Source: an uncultured Phycisphaerales bacterium
Lineage (GTDB): Bacteria; Planctomycetota; Phycisphaerae; Tepidisphaerales; Tepidisphaeraceae
Assembly (NCBI GenBank): GCA_963755915.1
Contig: CAVWLP010000002.1
Span: forward strand, 3,840,001 to 3,904,000
Length of the DNA: 64,000 nt
Direction: 5' to 3'
Shown here: one piece after another, positions 16,494 through 19,967 of the stretch
Layout of the letters: the number at the start of each line of letters is the position of its first letter
How positions within the stretch are numbered: position 1 is the first letter of the stretch
Program-made: the position numbers and the translations under genes
The notes under the pieces: model-generated
What the model saw: the letters and a program-made list of their open reading frames with translations, nothing else
Databases searched by the model: none
What the model was told of the DNA's origin: nothing

Positions 16494-16682
16494 TCACGGT
16501 ACGCGCTGCTGTGTTTGACCGTTTGGGCGCATTGAGAGGTCCACGGTGACAATGTAGACCGCCATCGCGCCCAGCATGATCAGGACGGCCACCCAAAATT
16601 TCCAGTCGCGGTGAGCGCGCTTCCAATAGGGAATGTGGGGATGGGATTTCTGGTAATGCGTATGCGTGTGCTCTTCTTCCAT
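16494..16682 (-). CDS. Small His-rich single-TM protein
   Basis: PYWKRAHRDWKFWVAVLIML..YIVT.DLS; plausible RBS. Confidence 0.55.
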   Translation of the reverse strand: MEEEHTHTHYQKSHPHIPYWKRAHRDWKFWVAVLIMLGAMAVYIVTVDLSMRPNGQTQQRVP

Positions 16683-16776
16683 CCTTCACCCTTCGATTTC
16701 TTCGGCCGCCCGAGCTTGCGGTTGCGGACCTTGGCCAAGTCCTTCGTATAAGAACTCGAAATTAGCCGAAATGCAA

Positions 16777-16820
16777 AATCGCCCGGAAATCCGGGCGATT
16801 TGCGGGAAACCATGGTTTCC
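16777..16820 (-). terminator. Hairpins downstream of tRNA-Glu (possible terminator)
   Basis: AAATCGCCCGGAAATCCGGGCGATTT and GGAAACCATGGTTTCC inverted repeats. Confidence 0.45.
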
Positions 16821-16824
16821 TGAA

Positions 16825-16897
16825 TACCCCCTAGGGGAGTCGAACCCCTGTCCTCTGGCTGAGAACCAGATATCCTGGGCCACTAGACGAAGGGGGC
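16825..16897 (-). tRNA. tRNA-Glu(CTC), CCA not encoded
   Basis: GCCCCCTTCGTCTAGTGGCCCAGGATATCTGGTTCTCAGCCAGAGGACAGGGGTTCGACTCCCCTAGGGGGTA folds as a cloverleaf with anticodon CTC. Confidence 0.95.
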
Positions 16898-17339
16898 TTC
16901 GAATGGGCTTGCCCAGCGGATGCAATCCTAATGCGGATGCGCGGAAGGTCAAGAAATCGGGTTTGGCCCCGTGGATGCGGGGCGGGGCAATCGCTTGCGC
17001 CTCGTAAAACGCAGAAGGCCGCCACCCATCGTGCCGAAACTAGCTGAAGAGGACAGGGGGCTCCCCGGGAGTACCTGACCGCCCGACACATTTTTTGAGT
17101 TCGAGGAGTAAGCGGCCGGCTCTTTTGAAGACAAATGCAAAAGCAATGCAGGGGAGGCGGGAGACAACCCATAAGGCCCCAAGGTTTTTCTCCCGCCTCC
17201 CCCGCACCCCCACTCCCTCTCCTTTTCCCCTGCTATGTTGGTTGTCAAGTGTGGGCCGCATTCGCCGCCTTTATTCTTTTGTCTTTTTAAGCTGTTGCTC
17301 GGCCTGTCAGTGTCCGCTCTGCATGGGCTGTTGCCATCA

Positions 17340-17485
17340 TTGCGGCAACGCTCTTCCTGCTATCCGTACCTGGCGGTTTGCCAGTACACCATGGTCTAAT
17401 ACGTCCGTTGCAGGCGGTTCACGCTGACCCAATCTAACCGCCGAACGCTCAAGGGCGCTCATAGGGGAAAACGGGCGCGTTACAC
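17340..17485 (-). ncRNA. Putative bridge/seek RNA of the IS110 element
   Basis: Internal loop with TTTTCCCCT and CGGTTAG matching both sides of the target; second loop with ATAGCAG matching the donor junction; boundaries approximate. Confidence 0.7.
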
Positions 17486-17574
17486 CGTGGCTCGTCTCTT
17501 TCACTTTTATTCCAAGCTCTTTATCCGTCGTCCATCCAGGCTCCAGAAGTTCGGGGACAACCTTGGCCGGCTTT

Positions 17575-18714
17575 TTACGCTGCCAGTTTCAAGCCCAGAT
17601 CCTGCGCTTTGACCCGGCCGGTTTTGATCCGCCACAGGTCCACCGCCAGTTGCCGCGCCAAGGCCACCGCGGCTTTCTTGCGCATGGCTCTGGCTCCGGG
17701 GTTCTCGAAGACCTGCTTCCAGCGCTTCAGACGAAAATACTCCGGCTGGAACTTGGGCAGCAGCCACGCCAGTTCCACCAGCACCGTGCGCAGTCGGCGG
17801 TTGCCATGTTTGTCGATCGACAGATTCATCCGGCTCTGGCCTGAGGAGGATTCTCCAGGGCAAAGCCCGGTGTAGCTGGCGATCTGCCGGCGGTTCTGGA
17901 AGCGATTCCAGTCGACGATCTCACGATCCAGCAGCTCATAGCTGAGGTGTCCGATTCCCTTGATCCGGGCCGATTCGCGGGACTTGGCCTCCGCGCAGAG
18001 CTGGCGGGTCAGTTCATCTCGCTTCTGGTCCATCATCTCTACCATCTCCAGGTCGCGGGCAAGCTCCTTGCGGATCGGTTCGATCAGTTCTGAGCCGTAG
18101 AGTTCTTCCAGCTTTTTCAGCAGCGGCTCACACGCCAGCGGCTCCCACCATTTTCCCGGGCGATGGATGCCGAGGCTGTGCAGCAGGCTTCGTCCACGGG
18201 CGATCCAGCGCTGCCGTTCCTTTCGGTAGGTGTTGCGCTCGCGCCCCAGGCGGCGGTGGATCTCCTGGGCCACCGTGGGGACACGCACCAGACGCAGCGC
18301 CGTCGTGTTGCCGGCGAGATGCCGGTCCAGACGCGAGAGCAGTTCGGTGGCGTCGATCTTGTCGTTGACTCTCTTGCGGCCGCGGGACAGACGTTCGGGG
18401 GCACAGACCAGGCACTCTACGCCCAGGGCGGTGGCTTCGCGGTGCAACGCGAAGCCGTAGGGACCGGCTTCGTAGACCATCACCACGCGTTTGGCCAGCG
18501 TCAGCTGCTTTTTGAGAAACTCGATGAAGACGGCCGGCGAGAGTTTTTGGGCCGGTTGAATCCCCTGATGATCGACCATCCGTGCGAAGGTATATTGCTG
18601 GCTGTGGGTATCCACGCCGAGTTTGATCACCTCGTGCGACTGATTGGGCTTCGAGACTCTCTCCCCTCGAACTTGGGAGGCCTTGCGGCTACCTTTAGAA
18701 GAATTGTGTTTCAT
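17575..18714 (-). CDS. IS110 family DEDD recombinase/transposase
   Basis: LGVDTH, VYEAGPYG, KRVNDKIDA (DEDD); IKGIG, RFQNRRQIASYTGLCPGESSSG, GNRRLR and VALARQL motifs. Confidence 0.95.
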   Translation of the reverse strand: MKHNSSKGSRKASQVRGERVSKPNQSHEVIKLGVDTHSQQYTFARMVDHQGIQPAQKLSPAVFIEFLKKQLTLAKRVVMVYEAGPYGFALHREATALGVECLVCAPERLSRGRKRVNDKIDATELLSRLDRHLAGNTTALRLVRVPTVAQEIHRRLGRERNTYRKERQRWIARGRSLLHSLGIHRPGKWWEPLACEPLLKKLEELYGSELIEPIRKELARDLEMVEMMDQKRDELTRQLCAEAKSRESARIKGIGHLSYELLDREIVDWNRFQNRRQIASYTGLCPGESSSGQSRMNLSIDKHGNRRLRTVLVELAWLLPKFQPEYFRLKRWKQVFENPGARAMRKKAAVALARQLAVDLWRIKTGRVKAQDLGLKLAA

Positions 18715-19124
18715 GGTTGTCGGGTTTAGTCGACGGTGGCTAGCCCGACAACCAACATGCCATCTAACCGTCCCCCCCAAAAGGCGAAATACGGAGGCGT
18801 TTCGCCAGTGATTCGCGCACCTCGTACACGTGGGCGTTGGAACATCCGATTGCGTGAATGCGGTCGTGCACGCATTTGATGGGGGAGCGTTGAGGGGAAA
18901 AGGAAGAGGAGTGGGGAGGGGGAAACTTTTGTCCTCGACCCTCAGCTCAGACCGGAGGGGGGCCCTATATCGGTTCCCCCTCGCCCCGCCCGCATTGCAT
19001 TTGCATTTGGAAGACTTTGCCAATTCGTCTCCCAACTCAAAAAAGTGTCGGGCGGTCAGGAGTACCAGGGGAGGGGGAAAAGGGGGACATCCGAATGCCC
19101 TGGGACGCGGATTGTTTCTAAATT

Positions 19125-19361
19125 TTAGAATCTTCCCCAAAGGAAGAAGGCCGCAATCCCGGCCAAAGTAAAATCGACCACGGCACCAAGTACGAATCTT
19201 AAATCCCCGGCATGGATTCCCGCTAAACTCAATGCGATCCCGCTGGTAACCCAGATAATCGCAACCATCCCGATTAGAAATCTGATCGCGGGTGGAAGTT
19301 GTCGCTTTCGTTTGGGCGAAGCCCCACCATAGTCGAGCTGGTGTGGCTTGGGATTATCCAT
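19125..19361 (-). CDS. Small membrane protein
   Basis: MDNPKPHQLDYG followed by 2 TM helices. Confidence 0.5.
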   Translation of the reverse strand: MDNPKPHQLDYGGASPKRKRQLPPAIRFLIGMVAIIWVTSGIALSLAGIHAGDLRFVLGAVVDFTLAGIAAFFLWGRF

Positions 19362-19460
19362 CCCGACGATTCTATCCTCCGAGCGGGAAAAAGCCGCCTG
19401 GGACCCGCAATAGTGGTGATTCAAATTGAGACACTGCCGGATGTTGTGCTGAGACAGTTT

Positions 19461-19967
19461 TCACTTGCGGATCTGATGCACGAGATGCCGCAGTTCCGGG
19501 AGGATCAGCTTTGTCATTGCCAGCTCGACCGCCGCGGTGCTTCCGGGCATGGCGAAGAGCAGTTTTTTTCTGGCGACTCCGCCTACGGCGCGGCTGAGGA
19601 TGGCGCCGCTGCCGATCTGCTGCCAACTTAGCATCCGAAAAAGCTCGCCGAAGCCGGGGAGGGGGGTGTCGAGGATTTTTTCGACGACCGCAATCGTTTG
19701 ATCGCGATGGGTGATGCCGGTGCCGCCGGTGGTCAGTATCGCATCCACCTCGGACAGACCCAGCAGTTCTTCCAGGAGCTGCGCGAGGCGATCCGGGTCA
19801 TCGGGGATTACGTGCCGCTCGTGCACGTGGTGCTGGTCGGAGGCGAGGAGGTCGGCGATCCGCTTGCCGCTGACATCCGTTTCCGGCGTGCGCGTATCGC
19901 TGAGGGTTACGATGGCGCAGCGAACCGAAATCGATTTGGCGGCGGATTGATGCTCCTTATATGACAT
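19461..19967 (-). CDS. moaB: Molybdenum cofactor biosynthesis protein MoaB/MogA family
   Basis: TLSDTRT..D.SG, TTGGTG, PGFGELFRMLS, GAILSRA and PGS motifs. Confidence 0.85.
   Translation of the reverse strand: MSYKEHQSAAKSISVRCAIVTLSDTRTPETDVSGKRIADLLASDQHHVHERHVIPDDPDRLAQLLEELLGLSEVDAILTTGGTGITHRDQTIAVVEKILDTPLPGFGELFRMLSWQQIGSGAILSRAVGGVARKKLLFAMPGSTAAVELAMTKLILPELRHLVHQIRK

Follow-up and report, generated by a model that had tools for sequence, protein, structure and literature searches.

An IS1111-type element inserted into one repeat family of a planctomycete genome is probably directed by an RNA from its own 3′ non-coding region

How does a mobile element come to lie at one and the same place in one repeat family, always in one orientation? 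This question is raised by an insertion sequence (IS) in a stretch of 64,000 nucleotides from the genome of an uncultured Phycisphaerales bacterium (assembly GCA_963755915.1, contig CAVWLP010000002.1, positions 3,840,001 to 3,904,000), which we call the window and whose numbering we use throughout. An earlier note, made from the letters of this stretch, had described the IS as an IS1111-type element and had proposed that guide segments in its 3′ non-coding region (NCR) match its insertion site; its sequence statements all hold. We consider it very likely that the IS is an intact IS1111-type member of the IS110 family, with a DEDD/Ser transposase that is guided by an RNA from the element's own 3′ NCR.

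The genome (three contigs, 6.63 Mb) contains six copies of the IS. All six are flanked by ...TTCCCCT on one side and by AACCGTCC on the other, within a single repeat family and in one orientation, and none was found at a site unrelated to TTCCCCTAACCG. Removal of the IS together with one CT gives the joined target TTTTCCC-CT-AACCGTCC. The uninterrupted sequence TTCCCCTAACCGTCC occurs 12 more times in the genome, always at the corresponding position of this repeat family, so that 6 of the 18 exact sites are filled. None of the near-miss sites of this genome with one base changed or a 1-nt insertion (for example, TTCCCCTAAACGTCC, TTCTCCTAACCGTCC, and TTCCCCTCAACCGTCC) is occupied. The 12 empty sites fix the boundaries of the IS, with one CT per junction. 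On the plus strand, the left boundary reads ...CCTTTTCCC-CT followed by GCTATGTTGG, which begins GCTATG (core CT at 17230-17231), and the right boundary reads ...CATGCCAT-CT, with GCCAT before the CT, followed by AACCGTCC (second core CT at 18764-18765). In transposase orientation, the ends of the IS are AGATGGC-ATGTTGGTTGTC ... GACAACCAACAT-AGC, and the non-coding regions within the IS measure 51 nt upstream and 343 nt downstream of the transposase gene.

On the transposase strand, RNA of the 3′ region would read ...ACGCGCCCG-UUUUCCCCUAU-GAGCGCCCUUGAGCGUUC-GG-CGGUUAG-AU-UGGGU.... Within it, UUUUCCCCU (17471-17463; DNA AGGGGAAAA at 17463-17471) complements the core and the right flank, AG-GGGAAAA in transposase orientation, while CGGUUAG (17440-17434) is identical to the left flank and core, CGGTT-AG, and would pair with the other strand. 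The two matches, of 9 (10) nt and 7 nt, are thus to opposite strands, and both include the core. The 9/9 and 7/7 matches that the earlier note had read as target guides are confirmed with one restriction: because TTTTCCCCT is found in only two of the six occupied sites, the other four reading C(T/A)..CTTCCCCT, only seven of the nine guide nucleotides (TTCCCCT) match at every copy. The 3′ guide is followed by AU, the first two bases of the left end, so that the RNA matches the left junction as it stands after insertion, CGGTT-AG-AT, over 9 nt. This AU is invariant in the closest relatives of the IS (group 1, below), and AGAU is present in 37 of 39 aligned rows.

Further evidence for guidance comes from relatives of the IS inserted elsewhere. 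These were collected from genome and metagenome contigs. A search of genome contigs with the single protein gave only two loci, and a class-level search of 401 genomes found relatives in 10 of them, with G000 among the 10 and identities mostly of 30%; the useful relatives came from an alignment-based metagenome search. Group 1 includes 11 distinct relatives with transposases 63 to 73% identical in amino acid sequence. Their ends are near-identical, AG-ATGGC-ATGTTGGTTGTC ... GACAACCAACAT-AGC-AG, with the exceptions of L022, which reads ATCGC, and of L025 and L035, which have two mismatches and one mismatch, respectively, in the subterminal inverted repeats (sTIRs). The insertion sites of these 11 relatives and of the window copy fall into seven classes. 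Their 3′ regions align over about 195 nt, in which two short variable blocks are exactly the two target-guide segments.

We scored each pair of guide and flank by the longest exact match running through the core. The cognate scores (5′ guide/3′ guide) are 10/7 for the window copy, 6/3 for L022, 9/5 for L025, 5/7 for L028, 5/7 for L031, 10/8 for L032, 11/3 for L035, 5/6 for L027, 10/5 for L102, 0/4 for L029, 0/5 for L008, and 9/4 for L030, with means of 6.7 nt for the 5′ guide and 5.3 nt for the 3′ guide. Non-cognate pairs from different target classes reach a mean of 3.8 (maximum, 7) for the 5′ guide and of 2.6 (maximum, 4) for the 3′ guide. When one representative each of six classes was taken, none of the 265 derangements reached the observed sum of 88; the class of L022 was not represented, since the end of the contig truncates its right flank. 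The expectation that guides and targets covary across copies was therefore borne out over the seven target classes.

Two further features of the targets were observed. In L035, the right flank fits the 5′ guide over about 11 to 12 nt, but the left flank GGGATA-AG does not fit the 3′ guide, GUGAAAAG, which would suit the left flanks of L031 and L032; this misfit could result from a rearrangement or deletion beside the element. In the targets of groups 1 and 2, the AG core is nearly always followed by G, GG, or GGG at the start of the right flank, so that the 5′ guides hold CCC before CU, which suggests a constraint beyond free programmability at the G-run positions next to the core.

The guide segments had also been proposed to lie in loops of a folded RNA. 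RNAalifold, applied to 12 sequences, places both target guides in one internal loop, with a basal stem below it and a hairpin as its cap, and also predicts a second hairpin-capped loop, a small third hairpin, and a long-range closing stem, which in the window copy joins 17482-17487 with 17308-17313. Helices 3 and 4 of the basal stem change in compensation, as can be seen by eye (GCCCG/UUGGGU, GUCCG/UUGGAC, and GCGCG/UUGCGC). The covariance model made from this structure, R1, has a single match in the window, at 17302-17496 on the minus strand. Across 86 sources, it finds 40 places (E ≤ 0.001), all directly after the transposase stop codon and on the same strand, including elements with transposases only 39 to 47% identical. 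In the resulting 40-row alignment, A3, 93.2% of cells pair; the proportion is 74.6% in shuffles, none of 500 reaching the observed value, and does not exceed 42.6% when partners are slid. Compensatory changes are found in 37 of the 47 pairs among these sequences, which are related by descent. The target guides thus lie in the internal loop of an RNA that is supported by covariation. In some relatives (L022, L027, L030, and L029), the 3′ NCR extends to 500 to 700 nt; additional sequence precedes or follows the conserved RNA, and the third hairpin is enlarged. The RNA of L022 begins about 350 nt past the stop codon.

The second loop would face the ends of the element itself. In transposase orientation, the expected junction of an excised circle is ...CAT-AGC-AG-ATGGC-ATG..., and the RNA of the second loop reads ...GACCAUGG, a hairpin, and GGAUAGCAGG.... 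Because the ends within group 1 are near-invariant, more distant relatives were used for a comparison of this loop. In the group with 40% identity, we located the ends by the motifs ATG(G/A)CATG and CATAG(C/G); a de novo inverted-repeat search in this group gave mostly noise. In 31 of 31 loci, the right end (CATAGC or CATAGG) finishes on the base that the RNA carries at the aligned position (C/C in 18 and G/G in 13). At position 4 of the left end (ATGGC or ATGAC), the end and RNA bases are G:C in 12 loci, A:U in 13, G:U in 8, and A:C in none, so that all 33 loci are concordant. L010, whose genome is unpublished, was left out of both counts. This tracking of the ends fits a donor-binding loop that would follow the same logic as the target loop, although the case is weaker than that for the target loop.

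The transposase agrees with an assignment to the IS110 family. It matches the NCBIfam model NF033542, "IS110 family RNA-guided transposase" (163.8 bits versus a cutoff of 140), over residues 33 to 363 (profile positions 3 to 337 of 343), and Pfam PF02371 (E = 8e−16). Residues D35, E82, D118, and D121 are invariant in 38 aligned homologues and form a putative DEDD motif, and GLCPGESSSG at residues 283 to 292 corresponds to the motif GL-P----SG, with S291 conserved in at least 90% of the same homologues and G292 in all. These appear to be the active-site residues of the IS110 family, with a catalytic role that is putative. A profile of the homologues matches the IS621 transposase among PDB entries (E = 1.2e−4) in the C-terminal domain only, with the Ser-Gly aligned to the ESG of IS621; phmmer with the single transposase sequence against PDB sequences gave no match. 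The AlphaFold model has a mean predicted local distance difference test value (pLDDT) of 80.4, and its best fold matches are the IS621 (first) and ISCro4 recombinases (E = 4e−8), with template modeling scores of only 0.27 to 0.31 because the domains are posed differently. To our knowledge, there is no solved structure from the IS1111 branch. The N-terminal extension of the protein is kept in homologues, with A12 and R16 invariant. Among 72,556 plasmid records, no IS110-family gene exceeds 37% identity to the transposase, and more than 2,300 metagenomic homologues (E ≤ 1e−30) were found among 8,000 candidates scored, in records named Planctomycetota, Verrucomicrobiota, and Acidobacteriota.

The layout of the IS (Table 1) points in the same direction. 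IS1111 elements have sTIRs of 11 to 13 bp, left extensions of 7 (or 6) bp, right extensions of 3 bp, and a long downstream NCR (PMC11187229), with a range of 7 to 17 bp also given for the sTIRs (PMC11208160), and in their seekRNA the match to the top strand lies 5′ of that to the bottom strand (PMC11187229). The NF033542 match, the 12-bp sTIRs, the 7- and 3-bp extensions, the downstream NCR, the GL-P----SG motif, and the order of the guides together uphold the description of the element as IS1111-type.

Table 1. Features of the IS, its predicted RNA, and its surroundings (window positions; subterminal inverted repeats and extensions in transposase orientation)
Feature	Positions	Strand	Remark
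Complete IS, 1534 bp including one CT/AG core copy	17232-18765	minus	boundaries from empty sites
Transposase gene, 379 aa	17575-18714	minus	open 379-codon frame
Left subterminal inverted repeat, ATGTTGGTTGTC	18747-18758		12/12 complementary to right one
Left 7-bp extension, AGATGGC	18759-18765		outward of left sTIR
Right subterminal inverted repeat, GACAACCAACAT	17235-17246		perfect 12 bp
Right 3-bp extension, AGC	17232-17234		outward of right sTIR
Outward-facing TTGACA at right end	17243-17248	minus	perfect −35 hexamer
Predicted bridge/seek RNA region, ~195 nt	17302-17496	minus	covariance model R1, 153.5 bits
Basal stem of target loop, ACGCGCCCG (17472-17480) with UUGGGU..GCGU (17421-17431)	17421-17480	minus	
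5′ target guide, UUUUCCCCU(A)	17462-17471	minus	11-nt 5′ side of target loop
Hairpin capping target loop, GAGCGC CCUUGA GCGUUC	17443-17460	minus	
3′ target guide, CGGUUAG then AU	17432-17440	minus	CTAACCG at 17434-17440
Putative 5′ donor guide, CCAU	17391-17394	minus	complements left-end ATGG
Hairpin capping donor loop, GUGUACUGGC...GCCAGGUAC	17366-17389	minus	helix 8: 8/10 pairs compensatory
Putative 3′ donor guide, AUAGCAG	17357-17363	minus	= right end ATAGC + core AG, 7/7
Left target half including core, TTTTCCC-CT	17223-17231	plus	
Right target half, AACCGTCC	18766-18773	plus	
Host repeat, left arm	17061-17231		target at inner end
Host repeat, inverted right arm	18893-19073		
tRNA gene (Rfam RF00005, 54.1 bits)	16825-16897	minus	~165 bp from outer end of IS-bearing repeat arm

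In the mechanism that we propose, the IS would be excised as a circle, with the core AG joining its right end directly to its left end, and the RNA would fold to form a pair of internal loops. The 5′ side of the target loop, UUUUCCCCU, would pair with one strand of the core and right flank, and its 3′ side, CGGUUAG, with the other strand of the left flank and core. The donor loop would use CCAU to pair with the left end, and AUAGCAG to pair with the right end and core. A transposase tetramer would then exchange strands at the CT/AG dinucleotide and leave the IS in one orientation between TTCCCCT and AACCGTCC within the repeat family. We infer expression of the RNA, formation of the ribonucleoprotein and of the circle, the chemistry, and reprogrammability by analogy with IS621, ISEc11, and their relatives.

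Several observations weigh against this interpretation, beginning with the guides themselves. Several cognate matches are short, with identifiable causes. The flanks of L022 and L028 are cut to 2 nt, which lowers their scores; the 5′ guide of L031 matches 5 nt contiguously, or 11 if a 1-nt bulge is allowed for the one extra G of its flank; that of L027 matches 5 nt contiguously and 8 of 10 overall, with two internal mismatches; and L029 and L008 have a mismatch opposite the core A, with nine matched bases beyond it. The 3′ guides of L035 and L022 match only 3 nt, and that of L030 matches 4 nt. Among the relatives, the 5′ side of the loop always measures 11 nt, but the complement of the core shifts by 0 to 2 nt within it; a shift of this kind is not expected from a rigid scaffold. 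The alignment A3 was fitted to model R1, which favors the structure, and the minimum free energy of single sequences is no better than that of shuffles (z = −0.01 for 376 nt and −0.98 for 196 nt). The check by folding that had been proposed earlier thus succeeds in its comparative form and fails for the single sequence, and because single-sequence folding is undistinctive, the structure is drawn from comparative data only. A scan of 16500-19500 against Rfam 15 (E ≤ 1) found no RNA family over the NCR. The metatranscriptome run X14 holds a 226-nt contig over 17374-17597, which covers the target loop and the gene end; it is at most a hint of transcription, since DNA may be in the library, and because the data from sequencing runs are all contigs, the ends, strand, and level of the RNA are unreadable. 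A promoter scan of the linear element gave no promoter-like (sigma-70-like) sites, and its two terminator-like sites are no excess over shuffles. On the protein side, the N-terminal domain PF01548 has no match even at E ≤ 10.

The remaining points of this kind concern the donor loop. The CCAU match is only 4 nt long and leaves the core uncovered in the window copy. The switches in the ends follow clade boundaries, so that the concordant loci represent few independent events. The GCAG(G) of AUAGCAG is predicted to pair with CCUGC, in a stem that changes compensatorily (GCUUC/GGAGU in the distant group). Donor binding may be needed to unmask the 3′ donor guide, or just a part of the segment may be a guide. 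Of the earlier proposal that the second stem-loop is a donor loop, the 7/7 match of AUAGCAG stands and is joined by the tracking of the ends, while the short CCAU match and the placement of GCAG in a stem speak against it.

These points bear on the alternative that only the first loop works, as a seekRNA of about 85 to 100 nt that chooses the target, with the protein reading the ends through the sTIRs; the second stem-loop would then be a scaffold, and its likeness to the ends would be incidental or inherited. Such an arrangement has a precedent, because IS1111 transposases have been purified together with RNAs of 82 to 96 nt that contain just the two target matches and are enough for movement (PMC11187229). 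It would also account for the 5′ donor match without the core, for the covarying stem in which GCAG can sit, and for sTIRs that, apart from those of L025 and L035, are invariant in group 1. However, it leaves to chance or descent that AUAGCAG equals the right end and core and that RNA bases track the changes of both ends without discordance, and 93% of IS1111 elements are predicted to carry two-loop bridge RNAs in their right end (PMC11208160). We regard a seekRNA without a donor loop as improbable here and favor a bridge RNA with two loops, of which the donor loop is supported only in part.

The IS could also be a fixed relic that is no longer mobile. The circle junction GCCATCTGCTAT has no match in the assembly, as this view would have it, but an assembly would rarely hold such a junction anyway. 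Against it, the six copies are 100% identical over 1549 bp, the 379-codon frame is open, a third of the exact sites is filled, and near-identical variants are present in several soil metagenome runs. The IS or a part of it is contained in 20 of 23 listed runs from 15 studies, nearly all of which are soil or rhizosphere metagenomes by record; 4 of the 20 runs may be the source of the present assembly. A DNA run from a soil metagenome (X5) holds a variant about 99% identical on a 1548-nt contig, with 18 substitutions and one single-base deletion. The variant agrees with the window copy in the target bases next to the element (17225-17231 and 18766-18773), and one of two left loose ends has a flank that resembles the repeat; none of its differences from the window copy falls in the four guide segments. 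We conclude that the IS is recently active and give the relic very little credence.

That the matches are accidental or act at the level of DNA, with the 3′ region being a degenerate copy of the target or a set of protein-binding sites, draws on the undistinctive folding energy and on the RNA being seen only by inference, but it is hardly tenable in view of the compensatory changes in most base pairs, the two guides in opposite senses with a hairpin between them, the covariation of guides and flanks that no derangement equaled, and the same architecture demonstrated experimentally in relatives (PMC11187229, PMC11208160).

The repeat that receives the IS is a composite of about 480 bp, in which two inverted arms of about 170 nt surround a center of about 110 to 130 nt, and blastn finds about 34 copies of the arm in the genome. 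Each arm has its own GC-rich hairpin (GCAGGGGAGGCGGGAGA...TCTCCCGCCTCCCCCGC), on which Rfam gives sub-threshold miRNA-like matches. The target of the IS is present in one arm only; the opposite arm reads TTCCCCTCAACGCTCC and is empty. The earlier note had called the target a local family of miniature inverted-repeat transposable elements (MITEs). A repeat family it is, but since we have no evidence for its mobility, "MITE" is merely a label for this composite.

In each of the three groups of relatives, the listed right ends have the outward-facing TTGACA at a fixed spacing from CATAG, and while the sTIR around it varies among the groups, TTGAC before CATAG is retained. Circularization would set TTGACA at a distance of 17 nt from a weak −10 hexamer, CATGTT, in the left end. 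The circle junctions of such elements form promoters (PMC11187229), and the hexamer fits a promoter that would be completed only in the circle.

A more distant branch, with records named Verrucomicrobiota (L165, L170, L140, L143-L148, L111, L044, L162, L172, and similar loci), has unlike cores at its two junctions. The right junction is GG in 13 of the 13 right ends found, and the left junction is AG in 19 of 20. In this branch, CC faces the core in the 5′ target loop, AG is present in both the 3′ target guide and the donor guide, and the right flank GGTTAGAT matches the 5′ loop. For the Verrucomicrobial "group 3" target, a full reconciliation with its guides was not reached. Junction cores that are systematically unlike might reflect a target core that differs from the donor core or a one-strand pathway.

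These observations enter into a broader reading, which we put forward tentatively and think rather less likely to be right than wrong, namely that the IS belongs to a distinct, abundant soil lineage of IS1111-like bridge recombinases, with an RNA mechanistically unlike those of IS621 and ISEc11 in four ways, and that the two target guides of the Verrucomicrobial branch may specify AG versus GG cores and so leave unlike junction cores. The four ways would be an RNA of about 195 nt closed by a long-range stem, an 11-nt 5′ target strand that tolerates a core shift of 0 to 2 nt, the AU "handshake" behind the 3′ target guide that is invariant in group 1, and a 3′ donor guide that a stem sequesters up to the binding of the donor.

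The IS110/IS1111 kind of element and its mechanism, including the right-end RNA of IS1111 elements, were published in 2024 (PMC11208160, PMC11187229), and the supplements of these articles may already hold RNAs of this shape. The IS is accordingly a divergent further case, with unusually complete natural evidence on target guides, and the understanding of how IS110/IS1111 elements work is unchanged by it. It offers a clean natural case of RNA-guided recombination, with the full target set of one genome (18 exact sites, 6 of them filled, and all near-misses empty), and 11 close relatives in which near-identical ends are combined with guides reprogrammed to seven sites. Together these form a natural data set on mismatch tolerance and guide length for the IS1111 branch. 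The pair of recombinase and RNA is divergent, comes from phyla rarely sampled for such tools, and is a candidate for programmable insertion.

With the seekRNA group of IS1111 elements (ISEc11, ISPa11, ISKpn4, and ISPst6; PMC11187229), the IS shares perfect 12-bp sTIRs, extensions of 7 and 3 bp, a long NCR downstream of the transposase gene, the GL-P----SG motif, the order of the guides, the overlap of the two matches at the crossover, and insertion in one orientation into a repeated sequence. It differs in the length of the transposase, 379 amino acids versus 330 to 350 (a descriptive range; PMC11187229), and in that PF01548 is undetected here, with the named ISs compared by description only. 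Its hosts are soil Planctomycetota-like bacteria, as judged from the names of the relatives' records.

The IS shares with IS621 (PMC11208160, PMC11208158; PDB 8wt6, 8wt9) two internal loops (the donor loop being putative here), guides for opposite strands around a 2-nt core, CT on one strand of that core, and the inclusion of the core in guides. The DEDD and Ser-Gly residues are also shared, with a spacing that resembles that of D11, E60, D102, D105, and S241 in IS621 (PMC11208158). The two extra bases after the 3′ target guide match the partner DNA and, by analogy, may resemble the handshake guides of IS621 (PMC11208158). In contrast to IS621, whose RNA lies in the 5′ NCR, the RNA here lies in the 3′ (right-end) NCR, and the order of the guides is reversed; the sTIRs here are long, and the putative 5′ donor guide lacks the core. 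The likeness of the proteins is seen only by profile (E = 1.2e−4, C-terminal domain) or by fold.

IS elements and repetitive extragenic palindromic (REP) sequences were reportedly treated together by Tobes and Pareja in 2006. ISPpu9, ISPpu10, and IS621 target REP sequences (PMC12288879), and the IS shares with them a natural target that is a multicopy intergenic palindromic repeat family. Compared with the targets of these REP-targeting ISs, the host repeat here is a longer composite (about 480 bp, with inverted arms of about 170 nt) with just about 34 arm copies, and it is presumably unrelated in sequence to the repeats of enterobacteria and Pseudomonas.

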